Shown one piece after another: positions 7,548-64,000 of a stretch of 64,000 bases of DNA. The stretch's first letter is position 1, and each line of letters begins with the position of its first letter. The DNA lies in the sequence record NC_135730.1, one strand, 5' to 3'. Both the position numbers and the translations under genes were made by a program. A model generated the notes under the pieces. The model was not told where the DNA came from. It worked only from the letters and a program-made list of their open reading frames with translations, and ran no database searches. The stretch comes from a phage.

Positions 7548-8924
7548 ATGCCATATTTAGATAAAGTGGTAGATGTTACAGTTAACCTCGGAACCCAACC
7601 TATTGACACTGTAGGTTTCGAAACTCCCCTGTTCATCGCTATCCACAACAACTTTACTGAGCGAGCTCGCGTATATGCAGAGCTGGATCAGATGGTGGAA
7701 GATGGTTTCGCACAAGGCTCTGCAGCGTATGAGTTTGCAGCAAAAGCTTTTGGTGGTGTATTCCCTCCACAATACGTTATGATCGGCAGACAGGCCAAAG
7801 AAAAGACAACTGTAGATTTTAAAGGTATTGCTGCCGCAGCTGATACCGATGTCGTAATGACTATTGCAAAAGGTAGCTACAATACTTCTTTGATAGTACC
7901 TATCTCTGGTGGAACAGGTGCAACTCAGATTGCAGAGTCAATGAAGACTAAGATCGAAGCAGATGATAACTTGGACGATATCACTGTAGAGGCTGCCGAT
8001 GGTGTTATCACCATCACTGGTGACTGCACTGTTGGTTATCATACTGGTAACTATACAATCAAAAATATCGCCAATGCTGAAAAACCTTCTACAGTAGTTG
8101 ATAAGATCAATGCTGAGCGTGACAATTGGTACTTCCTGTGCCATGAAGACCACACCGACATTGAAGCATGTGCGAAGTGGGCTCAGGCTAACTACAAGCT
8201 GCATGTCTACTCTACTGCAGAAGATGTGACTGGTAAAGATAATAACATCGCCACCAAACTGATGGCTGCACAATATGACAGTGTTGGCATGTACGATCCT
8301 CGTGCTGATAAAGATTTTCCAGAGGGTGGTATCGTAGGCGCTATGGCATCCAACGATCCGTCTTACGGTGACAGCTTGCATTTAAAACAGATGCCTGGTG
8401 TGATTGCACCATCTATGACTTTAACTCAGCGTATGTCGATTTGGGAAAACCACGTTAACTTCTACAGAATGATTAACGGTGTTGGCGCTTTCTGGGAAGG
8501 CAAGTGTGCTTCAGGTCAGTATGCAGACGCTATTCGTTTTGCGCACTGGATCAAGTTCAGATCTGAAGAATCCATGTTTGGGTACATGCATCGTCGCTCT
8601 AATATGGGTTTAAGCATGAAGATGTCTGATGATGATCTTCCGGTTATCAAGTCTGTTCTGATGAACAACCCGATCAATACTGGCATTAAGAATGGCGCGA
8701 TCCTGACAGGTTTTGACGAAGACAACAATGTGTTCTACGACCCGATCATCACAGTTCCTAAACGTGCAGAGATCCCAACCAATCAGTTGGCTGCTCGTGT
8801 TCTGGAAGGTGTGAAAGTAGAACTGGTGTATAATAACGCCCTGCACTTCGTTCGTATCCGGATCAACGTCCTTCTGGACAAAGTTGGTTCTAAATCCACC
8901 AATGCTGTTGCAATGACTGAATAA
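7548..8924 (+). CDS. major tail protein, sheath-like (458 aa)
   Basis: Large ORF followed by a ~157-aa tube-like ORF, chaperones and tape measure, as in contractile-tail gene order; a T5-type long tube protein is not excluded. Confidence 0.4.
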   Translation: MPYLDKVVDVTVNLGTQPIDTVGFETPLFIAIHNNFTERARVYAELDQMVEDGFAQGSAAYEFAAKAFGGVFPPQYVMIGRQAKEKTTVDFKGIAAAADTDVVMTIAKGSYNTSLIVPISGGTGATQIAESMKTKIEADDNLDDITVEAADGVITITGDCTVGYHTGNYTIKNIANAEKPSTVVDKINAERDNWYFLCHEDHTDIEACAKWAQANYKLHVYSTAEDVTGKDNNIATKLMAAQYDSVGMYDPRADKDFPEGGIVGAMASNDPSYGDSLHLKQMPGVIAPSMTLTQRMSIWENHVNFYRMINGVGAFWEGKCASGQYADAIRFAHWIKFRSEESMFGYMHRRSNMGLSMKMSDDDLPVIKSVLMNNPINTGIKNGAILTGFDEDNNVFYDPIITVPKRAEIPTNQLAARVLEGVKVELVYNNALHFVRIRINVLLDKVGSKSTNAVAMTE

Positions 8925-8934
8925 GGAAGACTAG

Positions 8935-9408
8935 ATGGAAACTCAAATTTTAACTCCTTATGCGTATGACCCTAAAAAGGTCAAACTGTACCTGATGCAG
9001 CAGCGTGTCACTGGCTTCGCTGCTGACACCAAGATCGTTGTTTCAAGAAACGAAGACAACATCTACCCTCACGTTGGTGTGGATGGCGAAATGTCTGCGG
9101 CCCTGTCTCGTAACCAATCTGGTGTTATGACTGTATCTTTGCAGAACACTTCTGTATGGAACGCTTACCTTTCTGACTGGCAGAAACAGGCATCGATTAC
9201 TGGTCTGGTATTCTTCCCAGTTCTGCTGGAAGGTAGCCAGGGTCCTGGTATTTCCACAATCGGTTGGATCCAGAAACAGCCTGACCTGACTTACGGAACC
9301 GAAGTAGGTCAACTGGACTGGGATATCGGTATTCTGGATGCATGGCTCAACCGTGATAACATCACTGGTGCTCTTACTGGCCTCGCAGGTCTTGCAGGTA
9401 TTATCTAA
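8935..9408 (+). CDS. putative tail tube protein
   Basis: 157-aa ORF between the sheath-like gene and the tail assembly chaperones; RBS AAGGAAG. Confidence 0.4.
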   Translation: METQILTPYAYDPKKVKLYLMQQRVTGFAADTKIVVSRNEDNIYPHVGVDGEMSAALSRNQSGVMTVSLQNTSVWNAYLSDWQKQASITGLVFFPVLLEGSQGPGISTIGWIQKQPDLTYGTEVGQLDWDIGILDAWLNRDNITGALTGLAGLAGII

Positions 9409-19765: not shown

Positions 19766-19769
19766 CATA

Positions 19770-19789
19770 GGGGGCTGTTTGCCCCCTTT
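19770..19789 (+). terminator. GC hairpin / weak terminator
   Basis: GGGGGC-tgttt-GCCCCC followed by only TTT, then the RBS of the next gene. Confidence 0.3.
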
Positions 19790-49041: not shown

Positions 49042-50523
49042 TTACTTAGCGTACTCGATTAATTCCACAGTTTTCCCAAAGCTCGGGATATAATTTTTAT
49101 TATACCCCTCAGTGAGGACCCATAGAGTATCGTACTTTTTCCACTTGTTGTCAACAACCTTTTGTTCAAAGTTATGCTCAAAGTATAGGTCGGTCAGGAC
49201 GATGACATCTTTTGCATTTGGTATGTTGGCATCCAGATACTCGAACACGCAAGCAGCTGTTGTTCCCCATGTCGAGTGGACCTCATAGTTGATCATTTCG
49301 TCTATGTTGCCGCGAGTGTATACTTTAACCTCTCCAACCTCAGTTGACCAACAGAACATTGTAACCTTAAATTCTTTATACAGATTGCACAATCCGGTGA
49401 TTTCATTGAACATTTTCTTTAAAGTTCTTTGAGAGATCGAGCCAGAAACGTCTAAAGCCACCACAATATCTATAGTGTTTTCCGGATTACGACCAGGAAC
49501 AATAACGTGCTGGTTCTTGTTTATAGCTCCGACTTTTCGCATTGTGCTGGTCAAAGACCCAGATCGGCGACCAGGTTTTCTGTAGGTCAGTTCAGCCTTT
49601 CGTTTAGACAACATGCGTTGCTTGATGATGTCTATATAATTGATTACAGGCTTACCTCTATTCTTGACAAACTCACGAACCGCCTCAGGGCAACGACCTC
49701 CGGAAGCTTGCATTGCTGCCTCAAGCATGTCACCAGAGTCCTGCATGGCCTGATCTTTATCAGATTGGCTGATTACAGGTTGTGGCTGATCATACCCCAT
49801 AGCCTTTCCAAGATCATCACTGGTGCCACCGTTCCCACTCATGTGATCATCGGTTTGTCGCTTATCTCCTTGAGAGTTCTCACCTTTACCGCTCTTACTT
49901 TTACCGTTATTCTGATCTCTTTGCTTATCAAGAACTGCATAGACGTTCTCAGCAATCCATCCATGAAACTTCATGTCGCAGTAGCAGTTAGCTAAGAAGC
50001 CAAAAGGCTTGCCTTTCACGAACGTAGTGCTTTTCCCCTTCGGGAAGAAAACACAAGGAGGCTTGCTAAAGTCAACCACAAGACCTGTGTTGATAACGTG
50101 ATCACAAGCAATATTGAACAGTTCCGGCTCAAAGCTTTTACCACGGACCAGGTGATCACAGATAATATGCCCCACCTCATGTGACAGAAGGAAGGCCACC
50201 TCTTTCACAGATTTTGGGGAATAGAAAACTTCAGCCATCTCAAACTGCTCGTCAGTTAGAGAAGCCTTAAGAATAGCCTTGCGTTCATCAGCCAATCCCA
50301 TAATGAACTCAGGGCTGTAATAAATGCGTTTATGGTCGGTTGCCATGGTGGAGCACCATGTGTGGTTTTCTACGAACTGCAACCCTGACAGCAGTGTGCC
50401 ATAAAACGGCAGCTTTTCAAGGAGATACATACGTGCAGCCTGCAACATTCTCAGGGCATCATCTTTCTGTGAGGCAATGATTTCTGAACTTCTGCTATCC
50501 ATTAAAACTCCAGAAGGGGCCAT
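49042..50523 (-). CDS. metallopeptidase-like / VWA-like domain protein (DUF2201-type)
   Basis: N-terminal HEVGHIICDH (HExxH zinc-peptidase motif); C-terminal IDIVVALDVSGSIS (VWA MIDAS-like DxSxS). Confidence 0.55.
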   Translation of the reverse strand: MAPSGVLMDSRSSEIIASQKDDALRMLQAARMYLLEKLPFYGTLLSGLQFVENHTWCSTMATDHKRIYYSPEFIMGLADERKAILKASLTDEQFEMAEVFYSPKSVKEVAFLLSHEVGHIICDHLVRGKSFEPELFNIACDHVINTGLVVDFSKPPCVFFPKGKSTTFVKGKPFGFLANCYCDMKFHGWIAENVYAVLDKQRDQNNGKSKSGKGENSQGDKRQTDDHMSGNGGTSDDLGKAMGYDQPQPVISQSDKDQAMQDSGDMLEAAMQASGGRCPEAVREFVKNRGKPVINYIDIIKQRMLSKRKAELTYRKPGRRSGSLTSTMRKVGAINKNQHVIVPGRNPENTIDIVVALDVSGSISQRTLKKMFNEITGLCNLYKEFKVTMFCWSTEVGEVKVYTRGNIDEMINYEVHSTWGTTAACVFEYLDANIPNAKDVIVLTDLYFEHNFEQKVVDNKWKKYDTLWVLTEGYNKNYIPSFGKTVELIEYAK

Positions 50524-50535
50524 TGGCCCCTGTCA

Positions 50536-55772: not shown

Positions 55773-56273
55773 GTGAAAATTAAGATCTTTGCTATTATTT
55801 TGAGCGCATTTTTATCGCTGCCTGTTGTTGCAGCACCAAAACAAAAAGTATATCATACTTGCAAGCCCTCAGATACTAAGGAAAACATTCTGGCATGCAA
55901 TATCTACAGGGAGGCTAGAGGGGATGGCACGATGGGTATGCTGGCATCCGGGTTTGCCACACTAAACAGGAAATCTCACCCCAAATACCCAGACACTATA
56001 AGAAAGATTGTCTACCAACCTAACCAGTTTTCGTGGACAAACCACGGCAAAACTTTTAAGGTGACAGAAAAAGATTCATGGGATCACGCTAAAAGTCTTG
56101 CAAAGATGCTTCTAAAGGTCTATAATAACAACCATGTTGCATACATGGCTATGGACATAACAGGTGGAGCAACACACTACCATACAACCAAAGTACGACC
56201 GAAATGGGCAAAAAAGATGCAGAGGACAGCTCAATTCGGGAGTCATATCTACTACAAGGAGCGCAATAAATGA
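55773..56273 (+). CDS. secreted cell-wall hydrolase (SleB / Hydrolase_2-like)
   Basis: N-terminal signal peptide MKIKIFAIILSAFLSLPVVAA; family-like motifs NIYREARGD, QPNQFSW, GGATHYH; GTG start. Confidence 0.55.
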   Translation: MKIKIFAIILSAFLSLPVVAAPKQKVYHTCKPSDTKENILACNIYREARGDGTMGMLASGFATLNRKSHPKYPDTIRKIVYQPNQFSWTNHGKTFKVTEKDSWDHAKSLAKMLLKVYNNNHVAYMAMDITGGATHYHTTKVRPKWAKKMQRTAQFGSHIYYKERNK

Positions 56274-57389
56274 TTGTAAACAGTAATGAAACTAAAGCAG
56301 TACTAACCGGAAATATGGAGGTCACCAGGGGCTCAATTTCTCTGAACAAAGAGACTTTTGGGCTAATCATTAAAGGGATTTACGAAGATAAGGTGCTGGC
56401 AAGCTGCCGTGAACCAATCTTCAATGCTGTGGACTCTCATGTTGAGTCTGGACGGGGTGATGTGCCGATCATTATTCACTCTCCTACAGACCTTGAACCA
56501 TACTTCTTTGTGCAGGACGTTGGATTGGGCATGTCAGAAGAGATGGTCCGCAACACTTTCATGAACCTCGGTGAGTCAACCAAGCGCAACAGCAACGCTC
56601 TGGTTGGCAATAAAGGTGTTGGTTCAAAGGCTCCGTTCAGCATGGTGGACACTTTCGATGTTATCAGTGTGCACAATGGTATTGAAAGCACATATCTATT
56701 GTTCTTGGATCAGGGTATCCCAAACGTTACCAAGATCCGCGAGCGGAAGACTGAAGAGCACAACGGGGTAAAAGTTCAGTTCCATGTTAAGAAAGAGCAT
56801 GTCCTGAAATATCGCACTGCTATTGCATCGTGCTTACGCTATGCGAAGTTTCCGTTCATCGTCACCGATCCCATGACCAGTAAGATGTTAGAAGGTGACA
56901 AGGTTGAGGCACAGTATCATTACGAGAAGGATGGCTGGAAAATGACCATCCTGAAAGGTTATACCAGTTCTGATGAGAGCCGTGTTGTGATGGGTCACCA
57001 ACCTTACCGCTCCAAGTTCCTGGAGACATTGACCGATTACCCTGCAATCTGCGTGGAAATTCCTATTGGGGATTGCAATATTAACCCTGGGCGTGAATGG
57101 ACCATAGAGGGCCATGACGACGGTGGATTCCAGGATCGCCTGGAGGCATTTGTCAAAGAAGGTATACGTCTTCGCGGGGCAGAAGTTGTTGCAGAACTGG
57201 AGACGGCAAAAACCTCCGCAGAAGCACGTGAAATGATGAAGAATAGTGGAGTGTTCGGACACATCTTCGGCAAGAACTTTATGTGGAACCGTTGGGAAGA
57301 AACAGGGCTTGGCGACTTAGGCGATTGTGAAATTTTCGCTGGCGGCTTAAATAAAGGCCGCATAGGCTATGCTTGTTACGGAAAGTCGG
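56270..57389 (+). CDS. GHKL-family (Bergerat-fold) ATPase, N-terminal portion; 3' end runs into the assembly gap
   Basis: N-box REPIFNAVDS (ExxxNAxD), G1 box DVGLGMS (DxGxG), G2 box GNKGVGSKAPF; ORF continues into the N run at 57390. Confidence 0.5.
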
Positions 57390-57399
57390 NNNNNNNNNN
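57390..57399. other. assembly gap (10 N)
   Basis: Run of ten n characters in the sequence. Confidence 0.99.
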
Positions 57400-58262
57400 A
57401 GTTCTTACGAGGTGTATACCTTGTATTTAACGACGGAGACGGCAAATATAACCGGAATAAGTGTAACTACTTAAGCGAGATCACCGGACGCAACGTTTTC
57501 TATTGCCGGAACACGGATCTGGTGAAAGAGTTTAAAGAGGCGGCACACCATCCGTTCTTTGCAGATACGGTCAAATTGTTATCGGAGCTTCCACGCCGAC
57601 CTGCGAAGAAAGGTGAAACCAAAACTCGTTACGAGCCAGGCTACTGGGTTAAGAAGCTTAGAGAGGATGGCTACTTCCATCGTGAGCGCCTCACGAAGGC
57701 AGAGTTCAAGAAGATTAAGCATTGCATCCCTTATGAGGGGGATATCCAACGGGGAAGCTGCTGGCTGGGCCAGATGAGTAACATCTACCAGCAAAATTAT
57801 GACCGTGTGCGTGCTGCACTCCAGATTCCTGAAGGTGAAGATCTGTACCTGGTATCAGAATCTCGTCTGCTTTGGACTGATCCTGATTGCCAGTATGTTA
57901 CAGAGAAGAATGTGGAACATTTGTTGAAAGAGGATGCTTGGAAATTCTTACTGACTCGCGCAGCAAATGAAACTTCATATGACAGCCTGTATAGACAATT
58001 AGGGAAAATTATCCCCATGCAGGATTTTGGAAATTATCGGCCACATTTCCACAAGTGGGAAGGTAACACCGCGTGGAAGCACAGTGAGCTAAATCATCGT
58101 GCCAAAATCTTAATCGCCAACCGGGTTAAGTGCGGGAAGGCCTATATTGCAAGATTGGAAAAGAAATATCCACTTTTGAAGCATGTGGGCTTGAAATATT
58201 GGGACACTCCTGCTATGATTGAATACCGTGAACTGATCGATACAAAGAATAACATCAAATAA
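57400..58262 (+). CDS. hypothetical protein, post-gap portion (possibly the C-terminal part of the GHKL ATPase gene)
   Basis: Open frame from the gap to the stop at 58262; reading-frame relationship to the upstream ORF cannot be determined across the gap. Confidence 0.35.
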
Positions 58263-58272
58263 GGAGACCAAG

Positions 58273-59478
58273 ATGATTTTCATCTACGAACATTTCAAAA
58301 CCCGTAAAGAAGCACGAGACCGCCGTGCAGAACTTGAGAAGAAGGGTTTCACATGTGCCATTGAGAAAGGCGACACAACCTGGACACTGGCAGTTGGTGC
58401 CCCAGAGTTGTTCGATCCTGACCGTGACAGCGTCTGCTACACCCGTGAGGATTTTGAAACCCGCGAAGAGGCCCGTTTATTTCGATACGGTCTGGAAGAT
58501 AACGGTAAGTACGCTATGATCTTAGATTTAGGCGAAGGTTCCGTTAAACGTTGGGGCGTGGTATACCCACTGTGTGTTGTTCACGGTGTGGGGTTCACTG
58601 GGGTAGCAATCAAGTCAGAAGAACCTTTAGTAGAAGTCAAAGATCCGGTGCTGGAGGTGGTGAGCAGTGTGTCTCAGCAACAGTCTCGAAGCATCGAGCC
58701 TTTGGTAGTTATTTGTGGGGAACTCCTCCAGATCACCTGCAACGAAGGCATTTTTGAAATTCGCCGCAGCGAAAGTGAGGAAGTTTACCAGAAAGTCTTC
58801 GACCATATCTCTGTTCAGGAATATGATGAGGCAATTGGTGAAATCCTTGTCTGGCTGGAACGCAAGAATGAGTTCACCACACTTGCAGACAACCTGATCA
58901 TGAAAGATGGCAAGCTCTACTACTACGGTGTAGAGATGCGATCCACCATTGCAAAGAAAATTGAGAAAGATTATGCAGACGGAACGCTGGATGACCGCTA
59001 TGTGAAATTCCTCGTTCGCCTGCTACGCAATCCTTCTGCAAAATCTGTAAACATGCTCTACGATTTTATGCAGGCCAACGATATCCAGATTGCAGAAGAT
59101 GGTCGAATCATTTGCTACAAAGGGGTTCAGTTTAACGGCAGCAAGTGGGTGGATTGGCACAGTGGTAAAGTTCCACAATACCAGGGTGCTTTTGTATCCA
59201 TGCCTCGTAACTTTGTAGAGGATGATCCTGAAGCTGCGTGCTCCTATGGCTTACACTGCGCCAGCAAGGAGTATGCAAAGAGCTACGGCACTGTAATGAC
59301 TGTTATGGTTGATCCTGCAGATGTGGTTAGTGTGCCATACCAACACAATAGCGCTAAATGCCGTGCATGCCGCTATGAGATTGTGGTAGCTCCGGAAGCA
59401 CGCAAAGATGGAGACCCTATTGAATATGTAGTTGATCGTGACGGTAATACTATCGACATTCTTTACGAGGAGGCGTAA
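58273..59478 (+). CDS. hypothetical protein with two N-terminal ~45-aa tandem repeats
   Basis: Repeats EHFKTRKEARDRRAELEKKGFTCAIEKGDTTWTL and EDFETREEARLFRYGLEDNGKYAMILDLGEG; RBS AAGGAGA. Confidence 0.35.
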   Translation: MIFIYEHFKTRKEARDRRAELEKKGFTCAIEKGDTTWTLAVGAPELFDPDRDSVCYTREDFETREEARLFRYGLEDNGKYAMILDLGEGSVKRWGVVYPLCVVHGVGFTGVAIKSEEPLVEVKDPVLEVVSSVSQQQSRSIEPLVVICGELLQITCNEGIFEIRRSESEEVYQKVFDHISVQEYDEAIGEILVWLERKNEFTTLADNLIMKDGKLYYYGVEMRSTIAKKIEKDYADGTLDDRYVKFLVRLLRNPSAKSVNMLYDFMQANDIQIAEDGRIICYKGVQFNGSKWVDWHSGKVPQYQGAFVSMPRNFVEDDPEAACSYGLHCASKEYAKSYGTVMTVMVDPADVVSVPYQHNSAKCRACRYEIVVAPEARKDGDPIEYVVDRDGNTIDILYEEA

Positions 59479-60848
59479 TGGAAAAAGGGCAGTATGATGT
59501 AGGCACAGATGCTGCCCTCGTTGCAATCATGAGCGGTGAGAATGTCTTCGTTTCAGGACCCGCAGGTTGTGGGAAGACGTACCTCATCAACATGATCCAG
59601 TCAATGTATGGAGACTCTTGCATAACGGTTGCCCCGACAGGGGTAGCCGCTTTAAACGTTAATGGAGCAACAGCACACCGAACCTTCGATCTTGCAGCAG
59701 GTGTGAGCATGGAGTCGGACTGGACCGCAATAAGGGCAAAAACAGCAAAGCCTTTGAAAAGCAAGGCATTTACCATCCTAATTATCGATGAAATCTCTAT
59801 GATTCGTGCTGATAAGTTTATAGAGATGGATAGGAAACTCCGCTTCCTTCGAAAAAATGACAAACCTTTCGGGGGCATACAGGTCATATTGTTTGGCGAT
59901 TTTTACCAGGCACCTCCTGTTGTCTCTTCTATGGAGAAGGAAGCCTACTTCAACTTCTACCATACGGACCTGTGTTGCTATACCGAATCTTGGAAAGAGC
60001 TTGACCTCCACAACATAGCCCTAATAGATCAGTTCCGACAGGAGTCTATTCGATTTGCTACAATGCTCAACTGTGTTCGTGAGGGTCGTCGCATAAAAGA
60101 GGTTGTAGCAGAACTTAATGCTCGCTGTTACAAAGGAGGTGTACCAACAGACGCTCTCACAATTTGCGCCACCAACAAACAAGCAGAGGAAGTGAACAGA
60201 AGGTTCTATGATGCCATCAACGCCCCAGAGAAGGTATACACTGGTGAAATGAAGGGTAAGTTTCCCTCCACCCTGCCAGTTGAGCAGGAGATGAAGTTGA
60301 AAATTGGCATGAAAGTTATGATAACCGCCAACGATGTTGACCCGACGCACAAAGTACCTTATTATGTTAACGGAACACGTGCCACAATTGTTAAATTTAA
60401 GAACAAGGCGGTGGTGGTAGAGCTTGAAGATGGAACACAGGTTGACATAGAGCAGAGGTTGTGGGAGAATAACGAGTATAAGCCCTCTCAGAGATACAAC
60501 ATTGCAGAAAGGAAGATGGAGAAGTTTATAGAGAGGGTAGTGATTGGGTCATACAAGCAACTTCCTCTGAAATCTGGGTACGCCGTAACATCTCATAAAA
60601 GTCAAGGACTTACGCTAGATTGTTACAACCTAGACCTTGGAAAGAACGGAGCTTTCTCTCCTGGGATGACGTATGTCGCTTTGAGTAGAGTTAAGACAAT
60701 ACAAGGAATAAACTTGTTGCGTCCACTAAGAGAAGTTGACATTATTGTTGACCCGCGAGTCGTAGAGTTTTACAATACAACATTCCCTGACTTAGACAAA
60801 ATTGTCAGGAAAGATTTTGAAACCAGAGCAGAAGAGGGGGACGTATGA
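59478..60848 (+). CDS. SF1 DNA helicase (PIF1 / RecD / Dda-like)
   Basis: Walker A GPAGCGKTY, motif VAPTGVAA, Walker B IIDEISMI, GDFYQAPPV. Confidence 0.6.
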   Translation: MEKGQYDVGTDAALVAIMSGENVFVSGPAGCGKTYLINMIQSMYGDSCITVAPTGVAALNVNGATAHRTFDLAAGVSMESDWTAIRAKTAKPLKSKAFTILIIDEISMIRADKFIEMDRKLRFLRKNDKPFGGIQVILFGDFYQAPPVVSSMEKEAYFNFYHTDLCCYTESWKELDLHNIALIDQFRQESIRFATMLNCVREGRRIKEVVAELNARCYKGGVPTDALTICATNKQAEEVNRRFYDAINAPEKVYTGEMKGKFPSTLPVEQEMKLKIGMKVMITANDVDPTHKVPYYVNGTRATIVKFKNKAVVVELEDGTQVDIEQRLWENNEYKPSQRYNIAERKMEKFIERVVIGSYKQLPLKSGYAVTSHKSQGLTLDCYNLDLGKNGAFSPGMTYVALSRVKTIQGINLLRPLREVDIIVDPRVVEFYNTTFPDLDKIVRKDFETRAEEGDV

Positions 60849-61186
60849 GTTTGTGGAGAAATATCGTTAACTACGTGTGTGGCAATCCAACTCCTGAAGA
60901 GAAGGATGTTGTGATTCACGATTTTACTAAAAGATCTCGTGAAAAAGATCTACTGCTAACAAAGGTGACTGATAAAGATCCTGCAGTAGGGGACTGGGCA
61001 GGTTTTGCGTTTACATCGGACAAATACACCTTTAACAAAGGTGACTATCTTGTTGTGGATTTTAACGAAGACATCGAGGGTGCTGAACCTTACTATCAGA
61101 CCCTTATCGTTGCAGGGTGTGTTGATCTCTCTGCAGGTATGCACAGTTTGATTCTTTTTGAGCTTGACTCTGAAGACCTCCAGTAG
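60845..61186 (+). CDS. hypothetical protein
   Basis: 113-aa ORF overlapping the helicase stop by 4 nt. Confidence 0.35.
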   Translation: MSLWRNIVNYVCGNPTPEEKDVVIHDFTKRSREKDLLLTKVTDKDPAVGDWAGFAFTSDKYTFNKGDYLVVDFNEDIEGAEPYYQTLIVAGCVDLSAGMHSLILFELDSEDLQ

Positions 61187-61192
61187 TAAGAT
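61164..61192 (+). promoter_or_regulatory. candidate promoter for the methyltransferase gene
   Basis: TTGACT -17- TAAGAT overlapping the 3' end of the upstream ORF. Confidence 0.35.
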
Positions 61193-61203
61193 GTAAGTAT
61201 AAA

Positions 61204-61221
61204 GGGGAGGCACTCCTCCCC
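61204..61221 (+). promoter_or_regulatory. perfect GC-rich hairpin in the methyltransferase 5' leader
   Basis: GGGGAGG-cact-CCTCCCC, 7-bp stem, no 3' U-run on the plus strand; lies between the candidate promoter and the RBS. Confidence 0.3.
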
Positions 61222-61247
61222 ACAAAAACTAAGGAGAGCACCAAACG

Positions 61248-62573
61248 ATGAGTAAAACCAAATTAGAACTTACCTGGATAGGTAAAAACGAGCGCAAAAA
61301 GTTAGAGCCGCACATTTTGTTAGAAGATTCTAGCAAGTCTTACCACAGCCAGAAAGTGACCGAAAACGATATTTTTGATAATAAACTGATTTTTGGAGAT
61401 AACTTATTAGCATTGAAGGCGCTAGAGCAAGAGTACGCAGGCAAAGTGAAGTGTGTTTACATAGACCCACCATTCAATACCGGGAGGGCTTTTGAGCACT
61501 ACGATGATAGCCTGGAGCATTCCATTTGGCTGGGCTTAATGAGGGATAGGTTAGAAATAATTCGTAATCTTCTAAGTGATGATGGGGTAATATTCGTTCA
61601 CTTAGATGATTGCGAAATGGCGTATTTAAAAGTTTTGATGGACGAGATTTTTGGTCGTGCAAATCAGTTAAATACCATATCGATGACCACAAATTCCCCT
61701 TCGGGATTTAAGGCAACGGGAGCCACAGTTTTCTCCACAGCAAACTTTTTGCTTGTATATGCAAAAGATCGCACCCAGAAACCGCTTAACAAAATCTATA
61801 TACCTAAAGGGTATGATACCGGATATAACAAATACCTATTAAACCCGGATGATCATTATAAAAATTGGACGTGGTGCGGTATTGCCGATGCGTTTGCAAA
61901 GGCCAATGGCTACAAAGATGCAAAAGAAGCCAAGAAAAAACTGCCTGACACATTCGAGGATGAATTAGCACAATTTGCAATTGATAATGCAGAACGTGTA
62001 TTTCAATCTGTTGCAATTGGTGGTGGTGCTAAAATAAAGAGAAAAGAAACTATAGAGAAGTCAAAGAAAGATAGGGATAAGGTTTATGTACATCCAAATG
62101 AGGATGTTGAAGGATTTTATATCGCAAATGGTAGGCAAATGGTCTTTTACTCCAACAGGCTTTTGGAAATTGACGGTGATATGCAACCTGCGGAACTAAT
62201 AACTGATGTTTGGACAGACATTAGTTGGAATGGAATAGCAAATGAAGGCGGCGTTAGTTTCAAAAATGGTAAAAAACCAGAAGCGCTTTTGAAGCGGATT
62301 TTCGAAATGTGTACGCGAGAAGGTGATTTGGTATTGGATTCATTCGGTGGTTCGGGAACTACTGCCGCTGTAGCTCACAAGATGAAAAGACGTTGGATCT
62401 CCATCGAGATCGGTGATCATTGCCATACCCATATTATTCCGCGCTTGGAAAAAGTGATCGATGGGGAAGATCAAGGTGGTATTTCTAAGTCTGTAAACTG
62501 GCAAGGTGGTGGTGGCTTCCGTTATTACAAACTTGCCCCGACCTTAATTGCGAAAGATAAGTCTGATCAATAA
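61248..62573 (+). CDS. DNA methyltransferase, beta-class (N6-adenine or N4-cytosine)
   Basis: Motif IV IDPPFNTG precedes motif I LDSFGGSGTT with a long intervening region; RBS AAGGAGAG. Confidence 0.65.
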   Translation: MSKTKLELTWIGKNERKKLEPHILLEDSSKSYHSQKVTENDIFDNKLIFGDNLLALKALEQEYAGKVKCVYIDPPFNTGRAFEHYDDSLEHSIWLGLMRDRLEIIRNLLSDDGVIFVHLDDCEMAYLKVLMDEIFGRANQLNTISMTTNSPSGFKATGATVFSTANFLLVYAKDRTQKPLNKIYIPKGYDTGYNKYLLNPDDHYKNWTWCGIADAFAKANGYKDAKEAKKKLPDTFEDELAQFAIDNAERVFQSVAIGGGAKIKRKETIEKSKKDRDKVYVHPNEDVEGFYIANGRQMVFYSNRLLEIDGDMQPAELITDVWTDISWNGIANEGGVSFKNGKKPEALLKRIFEMCTREGDLVLDSFGGSGTTAAVAHKMKRRWISIEIGDHCHTHIIPRLEKVIDGEDQGGISKSVNWQGGGGFRYYKLAPTLIAKDKSDQ

Positions 62574-62586
62574 AGAGTACAATCAA

Positions 62587-62892
62587 ATGATGAAACGTTA
62601 TAAACCATACACTTTTGAAATCGATTTCGAACTTGACGATATGTTCACTGTAGAAGCTCAGGCAGTTGTCCAGTTGCCAGACCCGGAGTGCCGTGATTCT
62701 GATGTTGACTATTACGGATTTAGACAGATCACTGATGTGCATGTTTACCACAACGGTGAAGAGGTGGACTTCCACCAACTGCCAAACGATATTCGCCACT
62801 CAATTTACAAACGTGCAGCCCGTGAACTAGAGTCCTATCTGGATGCAGCGACGACAGCAGCTGCATTTGCTGAAGAAGTGGGAGGTTTCTGA
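62587..62892 (+). CDS. hypothetical protein
   Basis: First ATG after the methyltransferase stop (track start 62548 overlaps the upstream gene); weak RBS. Confidence 0.3.
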   Translation: MMKRYKPYTFEIDFELDDMFTVEAQAVVQLPDPECRDSDVDYYGFRQITDVHVYHNGEEVDFHQLPNDIRHSIYKRAARELESYLDAATTAAAFAEEVGGF

Positions 62893-63299: not shown

Positions 63300-63782
63300 A
63301 TGTCAGATTTTATGTGGAAAGTAGGTTATGCCTCTCCTGAAATGTGCGAGGCTTGCTTTGTAAAAATAGGCCGCGAGGATATTGACAAAGTGATCTTTAA
63401 GTTTCGTGATGTATCTGTGATCGGCAACCGAGTGCTTAAGCACTTAAAGAATCTGAAGCTCACCAAAAAGAAGTTCTTCGGACTTTTCGAAGAGAAAGTT
63501 GATGCTTGGACCCATTGCATTCAGGAAGCTAAATCTCACTACAGTGCTATCGTTACCCCAGAACGGGTAGCCAAGATGGAAGGATTCATCAACAGCACAG
63601 AGTTTGAGTGCCTAAAGGCTGCCCTTAATAGTTATCCAAAGTGCCTCAAACACCTTGACAAGTATGTAGAAAAGGATGGGGAAATGTATCTCACCCTGGA
63701 TGCATACTATGAGATGCAAGAAATTTTAAATTTAGATTTGACATTGGTATCCACCGAGTATACAATAGGTATCCGGGTTTAA
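63300..63782 (+). CDS. hypothetical protein
   Basis: 160-aa ORF with RBS AGGAGAGAG; followed by a terminator. Confidence 0.35.
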   Translation: MSDFMWKVGYASPEMCEACFVKIGREDIDKVIFKFRDVSVIGNRVLKHLKNLKLTKKKFFGLFEEKVDAWTHCIQEAKSHYSAIVTPERVAKMEGFINSTEFECLKAALNSYPKCLKHLDKYVEKDGEMYLTLDAYYEMQEILNLDLTLVSTEYTIGIRV

Positions 63783-63788
63783 CACTAG

Positions 63789-63816
63789 GTCCTGCCCGAA
63801 AGGGTGGGGCTTTTTG
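63789..63816 (+). terminator. intrinsic terminator
   Basis: CCTGCCC-gaaa-GGGTGGGGC hairpin (with wobble pairs) followed by TTTTT. Confidence 0.45.
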
Positions 63817-64000
63817 CATTAGGAGACAGCAAATTGAAATTTATCTATAAAGAACACTACCACAAAGGTGTTGTGTGGAGTCTATTTGACGGATCTGGCG
63901 GTGCAGTCATTGACTAGGCAAAAGCTGGATATCTGTGCCTGTGCTTTAACGCAGAAGGTGCTGACCACGGCAGTTATGCAGAGGTGATCACCGATCATCC

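Follow-up and report, generated by a model that had tools for sequence, protein, structure and literature searches.

A truncated type III Mod methylase of host derivation in Vequintavirus that probably pre-methylates phage DNA and lies behind a leader of the phage backbone

Why should a lytic phage keep a DNA methylase that has no nuclease as partner, and is such a gene controlled by signals of its own? The question is raised by a locus in NC_135730.1, 64,000 nucleotides (nt) of phage DNA analysed over their whole length (the window), for which a preliminary description made from the letters alone had joined an SF1 helicase and an orphan beta-class DNA methyltransferase into one feature and had given the methyltransferase its own promoter and leader hairpin. 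The source of the window is a Vequintavirus (rV5-like), an E. coli phage with ∼99% identity to PDX and RudolfGeigy, and the 3.1-kb region in question is 98–99.4% identical to that of more than 80 GenBank Vequintavirus genomes (rV5, PDX, RudolfGeigy and others). We propose, with a probability of roughly 0.7, that the methylase is a truncated, host-derived type III Mod that probably pre-methylates phage DNA against the cognate restriction system, and that the leader in front of it belongs to the phage backbone.

The methylase carries motif IV (CVYIDPPFNTG, near residue 70, with DPPF at ∼74) N-terminal of motif I (DSFGGSGTT, near residue 365, with FGGSGTT at ∼367). This order, with ∼290 residues between DPPF and FGGSGTT, is that of the beta class, and the assignment made in the preliminary description is borne out both by it and by a match to the Pfam family N6_N4_Mtase (1.8e-42, 146.2 bits against a cut-off of 26.7, residues 67–393). 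As in Mod subunits, the recognition domain is inserted between motifs VIII and X, and the residues of the catalytic motifs are invariant in an alignment of 47 sequences. PADLOC scores the protein as MTase_III (1.3e-204, profile positions 2–444 of 575), and its best PDB sequence matches are type III Mod chains, namely 6k0w (1.2e-28), EcoP15I Mod 4zcf (2.8e-24) and Mbo45V 7dsu (5.7e-19). Several GenBank records already name the gene a type III methylation subunit. In NCBIfam, neither the methylase nor the neighbouring helicase reached any family cut-off.

A large protein search returned a 567-amino-acid E. coli Mod (P0003) that is 96% identical in amino acid sequence to the phage methylase over P0003 residues 1–439, while other homologues are mostly 560–600 amino acids long and 58–76% identical. 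Since the recognition regions of the phage and E. coli proteins differ at just four positions, all of them conservative substitutions, we infer that the two have the same specificity. The E. coli mod gene directly precedes an intact gene for a 910–912-amino-acid ResIII protein (Res), and PADLOC scores this pair as MTase_III (6.1e-284) and REase_III (8.8e-191). At the DNA level, megablast aligned the phage gene with mod in 24 complete E. coli genomes at 94.4% identity over window positions 61235–62565, and some mod match was present in 29 of 5,426 complete E. coli genomes, always on the chromosome. Strains that carry the system include 2014C-3011, SMN152SH1 and CFSAN004176. The homology begins 14 nt upstream of the phage start codon and continues to 62562; near 62563, 11 nt of E. 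coli mod are absent from the phage, after which the homology resumes for ∼19 nt. The 11-nt deletion causes a frameshift that leads to the TAA stop codon of the phage gene and leaves residual mod coding sequence beyond it, which shows that the phage gene was derived from a longer mod gene. The methylase is thus a fragment of an E. coli type III mod gene that extends from about −14 to codon 450. Synonymous divergence (dS) is 0.22–0.23 between E. coli and each phage clade and 0.38 between the two phage clades. These values make the E. coli gene approximately equidistant from both clades, as would be expected from a single capture long ago and more rapid evolution in the phages since then; two separate captures are a less probable alternative.

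The part of mod that the phage gene lacks corresponds to a defined region of the protein. In EcoP15I, Mod is composed of an N-terminal domain for dimerization (residues 14–60), a catalytic domain for methyl transfer that is also part of the dimer interface (62–262 and 390–516), a recognition domain that reads the DNA site (263–384) and a C-terminal domain (539–644) that in ModA makes extensive contacts with Res, and the Mod2 dimer alone is an active, stand-alone methylase (PMC4490356). The end of the phage methylase aligns opposite EcoP15I Mod residue ∼522, ahead of the C-terminal domain, and E. coli P0003 extends 128 residues past it. An AlphaFold model of P0003 (mean pLDDT, the predicted local distance difference test, of 80) has a separate alpha/beta domain at ∼443–540, which is the part absent from the phage protein, and Foldseek aligns the whole P0003 model to the Mod chains 6k0w and 4zcf. 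The truncation is therefore predicted to lie at a domain boundary. The phage methylase keeps the N-terminal dimerization domain, the complete catalytic domain and the recognition domain, and in its N-terminal domain, beta-class catalytic core and placement of the recognition domain it resembles the known type III Mod proteins (EcoP15I and EcoP1I; 4zcf, 6k0w and 7dsu; E. coli P0003), but it differs from them in lacking the C-terminal Res-docking domain and a res gene, and in lying within the replication operon of a lytic phage.

No nuclease gene lies beside the methylase, whose neighbours are the open reading frames (ORFs) ORF236 and ORF234, so the absence of an adjacent restriction endonuclease given in the preliminary description is borne out. 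A cognate nuclease outside the window, which that description had named as a finding that would speak against its reading, was sought by tblastn with the E. coli Res: no homologue was found in 50,697 phage records, Vequintavirus included, and the sole match was a weak one to a Vibrio phage helicase. The methylase reading frame is intact in ∼85 genomes, and the ratio of nonsynonymous to synonymous divergence (dN/dS) is 0.05–0.22 for every pair of methylase copies, phage versus phage included; the gene thus appears to be under purifying selection and functionally maintained. Its presence is patchy. About 30 of 116 Vequintavirus records match the flanks only, as two pieces that lie 1.35 kb closer together, a clean absence of the gene. 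The polymorphism extends to members of one species, as Murica carries the methylase and LL12 and HeinrichReichert do not, and likewise APECc02 and JeffSchatz carry it and MaxTheCat does not. Three kinds of junction without the methylase were seen: that of AlexBoehm, that of ECP32, in which an FV3-like leader is joined to ORF234, and that of an IMG/VR contig. This diversity points to several independent losses or exchanges. With about a quarter of Vequintavirus genomes lacking it, in several cases within species, the methylase appears to be an accessory, dispensable gene.

The region upstream of the methylase was found in the same form where the methylase is missing. In all eight of the methylase-free genomes examined, the same TTGACT...TAAGAT site is followed by the same hairpin and the same ribosome-binding leader, which lead directly to ATGAAACGT, the beginning of ORF234. 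In the window, ORF234 has a spacer of just 13–16 nt before it and lacks a clear Shine-Dalgarno sequence. No comparable hairpin precedes mod in E. coli. As the leader occurs without the methylase and the hairpin does not occur at the E. coli mod gene, the promoter-like site and the hairpin belong to the phage backbone, and the mod fragment sits between the leader and ORF234 and probably uses that leader. FV3-type genomes have a second, degenerate leader after the methylase, with a 6-bp GGGGAG/CUCUCC stem. Direct leader repeats on both sides of the methylase would permit its precise deletion, and ECP32 resembles such a product.

The perfect 7-bp GC hairpin ahead of the ribosome-binding site is exactly as described. 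It folds with −14.6 kcal/mol and leaves the Shine-Dalgarno site unpaired, which corresponds to a z score of −1.86, with 11 of 200 shuffled sequences equally stable. Perfect GC-rich hairpins of at least 7 bp are mildly enriched in the window, with eight matches at six distinct sites, whereas 20 shuffles gave a mean of 2.6. The stem is invariant in 14 genomes with or without the methylase, while the loop and flanks vary, including several of the 12 nt upstream; being invariant in 14 of 14 genomes, it offers no covariation, for which the second leader of FV3, whose stem keeps 6 bp with an altered 3' arm, gives weak support at best. Constraint on the hairpin is suggested by its intergenic position together with this invariance across genomes, not by its mere existence. 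Rfam gave no match at E≤1 between 60500 and 63000, and no further copy of the hairpin or the leader was found within the 64-kb window. Two more perfect 7-bp GC hairpins without a proper U-tract, at 19769–19787 and 50515–50531, lie exactly at junctions of co-oriented ORFs, and the three may form a class of intercistronic RNA elements. At 19769–19787 the order is stop codon, hairpin, Shine-Dalgarno sequence and start codon, between two large ORFs of tail-fibre size. Our best guess is that the hairpin is a general intercistronic element for mRNA stability, pausing or weak termination.

These features are brought together in the following mechanism. The truncated Mod would still dimerize and methylate one strand of the asymmetric site of the host enzyme. 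Progeny from any host would leave marked and would remain uncut on meeting an E. coli with the cognate system (a ‘Trojan horse’), and a protein without the Res-docking domain would not assemble into a restriction complex. Expression would come from the leader and operon where the methylase landed and not from signals of its own. With the cognate type III system carried by ∼0.5% of E. coli genomes, the gene would pay only in some niches, a limited benefit that would fit its repeated precise loss. The protective orphan methylase of the preliminary description is in this way supported and made more specific, in that the phage gene is a shortened and otherwise nearly identical version of the mod gene from a complete E. 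coli system.

Several points weigh against this proposal. The equivalence of the C-terminal domains of E. coli Mod and EcoP15I Mod is drawn from a full-length Foldseek alignment without residue-level output, the loss of this domain could only mark where the capture recombination fell, and we infer the activity of a Mod without it from the EcoP15I structure. Furthermore, the BASEL paper describes Vequintavirinae as ‘exceptionally susceptible’ to restriction systems, and its raw data permit phages with the gene (Bas52/53, Bas54 and Bas55) to be compared with phages without it (Bas56–59) (PMC8594841). Efficiency of plating in these data was ∼1e-4 to 2e-3 in all phages with EcoRI, at or below detection in all with EcoRV and the type III system EcoCFT_II, 0.06–0.8 in all with EcoKI and ∼0.2–4.7 with EcoCFT_I; with EcoPI it was 0.001–0.03 in the carriers, 0.1–0.6 in Bas56 and Bas57 and ≤0.004 in Bas58 and Bas59 (PMC8594841). 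In no case was it linked to the methylase, which in these data gives no protection against any of the six systems. Any protection must therefore be narrow, and a lack of effect on these six is expected if the specificity is that of a different, rare system. The publicly available, near-isogenic BASEL phages with (Bas52–55) and without (Bas56–59) the methylase amount to a natural experiment.

The same plating data show EcoPI (type III) sensitivities that are ∼100-fold apart among near-identical Vequintavirus phages, for which the methylase is not the cause (PMC8594841). That the phage Mod sensitizes to EcoPI was considered, as Bas56 plates ∼100-fold better than Bas53–55, and was rejected in view of Bas58 and Bas59, whose sensitivity equals or exceeds that of the carriers although the gene is missing from them too. 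The EcoPI site count is apparently 204 for both Bas52 and Bas56, subject to the unconfirmed label of that column in the BASEL table (PMC8594841). Some type III Mods trigger the type IV enzyme Mrr (PMC3152355), and triggering of Mrr is a possible cost of the methylase that we mention only as a lead.

If the methylase formed an independent module, with a sigma-70 promoter and a 5'-leader hairpin of its own, and were regulated apart from its neighbours, a transcript from ∼61199 would start with a stable stem-loop, as the promoter-like site has a 17-nt spacing and ends 11 nt ahead of the hairpin. Stable stem-loops at the 5' terminus can stabilize E. coli mRNAs. One of the predicted rV5 promoters, P220, moreover has TAAGAT as its −10 element. 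However, matches of 9/12 are as frequent as expected by chance, with 17 sites found in a 9-kb scan against 15.3±4.1 expected, and the authors of the rV5 genome paper, whose promoter threshold was 10/12, placed neither a promoter nor any of their 20 terminators at this site, their nearest calls being P231 and t232 (window 63738–63812). The site is kept in most genomes with and without the methylase, but it is disrupted in the methylase-carrying FV3 clade, where the spacer is 21 nt long and TAAGAC stands in place of TAAGAT. No terminator separates the upstream operon from the methylase, every genome examined without the methylase has the identical site, hairpin and ribosome-binding site before ORF234, and the E. 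coli source gene has no hairpin. We regard a dedicated promoter as improbable. Of the candidate promoter at this place, the position and the spacing stand, while a score better than chance, unbroken conservation and a listing in rV5 do not; a promoter and hairpin of the methylase's own, and the separate regulation at which the preliminary description had hinted, are not upheld. Somewhat less improbable, though still doubtful, is a hairpin that acts as a terminator or attenuator, closing the rIIA-rIIB-helicase-ORF236 unit or stopping antisense transcripts. In the vB_Eco_Alma record precisely this hairpin is labelled a terminator, the rV5 terminators t060 and t099 have similar GGGGAGG stems, and on the minus strand, where the hairpin is followed by TTTATACTT, a marginal T-rich tail, a scan scores it as terminator-like. 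In ECP32 (L009, ∼880–900) a run of 12 A lies immediately before the hairpin and makes it a canonical minus-strand terminator with a T12 tail; the A-run could be due to polymerase slippage or an assembly error or be a real variant. Against a terminator, the coding strand has ACAAAAAC after the stem and no U-tract, as an intrinsic terminator would require, every neighbouring gene is on the plus strand, which leaves no known minus-strand transcript to stop, the hairpin is not on the rV5 terminator list, and the similar hairpins at 19769–19787 and 50515–50531 suggest a general intercistronic element.

Two further explanations concern the methylase itself. A role in phage physiology such as replication, packaging or gene regulation (compare Dam in P1) instead of anti-restriction would agree with a location in the replication block, with purifying selection and with the lack of protection against the six systems, but the gene is missing from about one in four viable phages that are otherwise ∼95% identical, members of the same species included, and the recognition domain hardly differs from the one in a restriction-system Mod. 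Such a role is very improbable. Hardly credible is an inactive, decaying remnant of the captured mod gene, for which the ∼130 missing C-terminal residues, the frameshifting deletion at the end and the frequent loss could be cited; the frame intact in ∼85 genomes, the dN/dS values among phage copies, the invariance of all catalytic motif residues and the predicted truncation at a domain boundary argue against decay. We therefore retain the proposal of a truncated host-derived Mod that probably protects by pre-methylation. Since the dimer-forming domains of phage and host Mod share 96% identity, a Mod without the C-terminal domain might also act as a subunit poison that forms mixed dimers with host Mod to which Res cannot dock and so lowers host type III activity, although we give this additional effect little chance.

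A second truncated copy was found in an uncultured, unrelated phage. A Logan contig of 38.7 kb (SRR16894903; L023) encodes at 8001–9335 a Mod copy of 444 amino acids without the C-terminal domain, which in DNA is 88.7% identical to mod of E. coli. The flanks of this copy have no match in the phage collection, and the homologous segment is nested inside the span of the Vequintavirus cassette. It may represent either an independent capture or a transfer from phage to phage. Were the subunit-poison idea true, this truncated copy would reflect selection for the truncated form and not a recombination accident. The copy lies after a canonical terminator (GGGGGCTGCGGCCCCC TTTTTT), in a genome with an NrdD gene split by HNH endonucleases and with PhoH, ClpP and Dam genes. 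Two other homologues of ∼440 amino acids were considered as phage captures and rejected: one (P0030) is a split mod gene in a bacterial type III system, and the other (P0050) is in bacterial surroundings and is followed by a different gene.

To pre-empt restriction with an orphan methylase is a well-described phage strategy (‘Trojan horse’), and the methylases concerned are mostly of type II, some with broad or degenerate specificity (PMC12707154, which cites the review of Murphy et al. 2013). The Vequintavirus methylase is like them in being phage-encoded, in having no partner nuclease, in its origin from a bacterial restriction system and in the expected marking of DNA before export, but it differs in that it is derived from type III, is probably narrow in specificity, is visibly of recent capture, with 94% DNA identity to a host gene, and gives no protection against six common systems. 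The leader recalls the PeSL cassettes of T4-type phages, units of promoter and stem-loop that mediate gene gain and loss (PMC2839356, PMC4122927), in that a conserved intergenic promoter-like site and stem-loop border a variable gene and that FV3 has a second, degenerate copy. PeSLs, however, are present in many copies per genome and have strong promoters and effective terminators, whereas the leader in the window has a weak promoter, no U-tract and a single copy in 64 kb. A PeSL-type mobile cassette was rejected on these grounds, a second flanking copy being found only in the FV3 type.

The literature searched holds no methylome data on these phages and no report of how closely the methylase matches that of an intact E. 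coli type III system, of the loss of the Res-docking domain from this methylase, of presence/absence polymorphism with a shared leader, or of the lack of effect of the methylase on the six systems. As a capture of an orphan methylase the case is ordinary in kind and well resolved; it would provide a dated, traceable example of a lytic phage that has taken over the half of a host restriction system that gives protection and has discarded the part that recruits the nuclease. Phages of the rV5 type are used in O157 typing and in therapy cocktails, and the methylase may explain some strain-specific differences in host range. Where an intergenic ‘promoter plus hairpin’ lies beside an accessory gene, relatives without that gene should be compared before a regulator is named.

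The cognate mod-res pair of E. coli is part of a defence island beside tRNA-Sec (L015, 3919–14464; L020, 4129–13478), together with a mad1-like helix-turn-helix protein, a DrmD-like SNF2 helicase (964 amino acids), AbiD and AbiU/AIPR, and the island is flanked by IS66 fragments or by degraded integrase and ArdA genes. Membership of this island in MADS was considered, given the mad1-like protein, but was rejected because the scores of both the methylase and the nuclease are those of a classical type III system.

The coordinates of the features are collected in the table below; the positions given in the preliminary description for the genes, motifs, hairpin and promoter-like site were all confirmed.

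Table 1. Coordinates of the methylase, its leader and the neighbouring genes in NC_135730.1.
Feature	Position	Strand	Remarks
Predicted orphan type III Mod-derived N6-adenine DNA methyltransferase, without C-terminal domain	61248–62573	+	441 amino acids; Pfam, PADLOC, PDB, P0003 alignment
Extent of DNA homology to E. coli mod	61235–62582	+	megablast, pairwise BLAST, junction alignment
Promoter-like site TTGACT-17 nt-TAAGAT	61164–61192	+	−35 element inside the end of ORF236; 9/12 match
Intercistronic hairpin GGGGAGG-CACT-CCTCCCC	61204–61221	.	perfect 7-bp GC stem, 4-nt loop
Shine-Dalgarno region (AAGGAGAG) of the leader	61231–61238	+	for the methylase here; for ORF234 where the methylase is absent
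PIF1/Dda-like SF1B DNA helicase (rV5 ORF237 equivalent)	59478–60848	+	456 amino acids; Pfam, PHROG, motifs
ORF236 equivalent, small conserved ORF	60845–61186	+	113 amino acids; ATGA overlap with helicase stop
ORF234 equivalent	62590–62892	+	directly after the leader in AlexBoehm, LL12, navn, ECP32, MaxTheCat and HeinrichReichert

The SF1 helicase of the preliminary description can be specified as SF1B of the PIF1/Dda-like type, with a match to Pfam PIF1 (1.1e-32, 113.9 bits against a cut-off of 25.9) and also to AAA_30, a match to PHROG 325 ‘Dda-like helicase’ (6.4e-112), and Walker A (GPAGCGKT) and Walker B (IIDEISM) motifs in its translation. It is at least 94% identical across 115 Vequintavirus records, and outside the genus 49–52% identical in Avunavirus, Seunavirus-like phages and Mydovirus and ∼40% identical in Certrevirus. 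It resembles T4 Dda, the SF1B helicases PIF1 and RecD2, and ICP1 HelB in its PIF1/AAA_30 domains, its Dda-like PHROG and its location in a phage replication module, while differing from ICP1 HelB in sequence, to which it is just 28.7% identical. In Avunavirus Av-05 the rIIA-rIIB-helicase-...-Dcm-like-primase synteny is kept and the Mod-like methylase is not present in the block. The helicase thus appears to be a core accessory helicase of the Dda/PIF1 type in the replication module with no functional link to the methylase, and the pairing of the two as one feature is unwarranted, the helicase being a core gene conserved in genera without the methylase. The small ORF236 equivalent matches PHROG 11869 (unknown function, 3.1e-78), has no Pfam match and is annotated as a hypothetical protein in relatives; as a query in IMG/VR it returned two related loci only, and GenBank phage records were used for the comparisons.

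The order of genes in annotated relatives is rIIA, rIIB, DNA helicase, a hypothetical protein, the putative N6-adenine methyltransferase, three hypothetical proteins, a Dcm-like C5 methyltransferase, primase/helicase and DNA polymerase, all on one strand. The region is thus part of the early/replication block (rIIA-rIIB-helicase-...-primase-polymerase), and the rV5 genome paper assigned these genes to a single long transcription unit. The Dcm-like C5 methyltransferase, the second methylase of the block, occupies 63834–64000 of the window with a TTG start at 63834 and has an in-frame amber codon (TAG, 63915–63917) at codon 28, which is TGG (Trp) in RudolfGeigy and PDX; the amber codon may be a nonsense mutation, mark a pseudogene or stem from an error in sequencing. 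Within rIIA, a stretch of 10 N at 57390–57399 gives rise to two apparent ORFs (56270–57430 and 57369–58262), and this split is an assembly gap, not biology. In HeinrichReichert (L014, 5632–6303) the genes for the Dcm-like methylase and the primase/helicase are separated by an inserted gene for a putative homing endonuclease, which is not in the other genomes examined. Sixteen unannotated GenBank records of the MG0656xx series (for example MG065659.1 and MG065646.1) are titled ‘Campylobacter phage’ with C. jejuni as host; they are 98–99% identical to E. coli Vequintavirus in this region and look mislabelled or contaminated. In genuine Campylobacter phages (CP81, NCTC12673 and others) the Mod-like methylase is just 38–42% identical.

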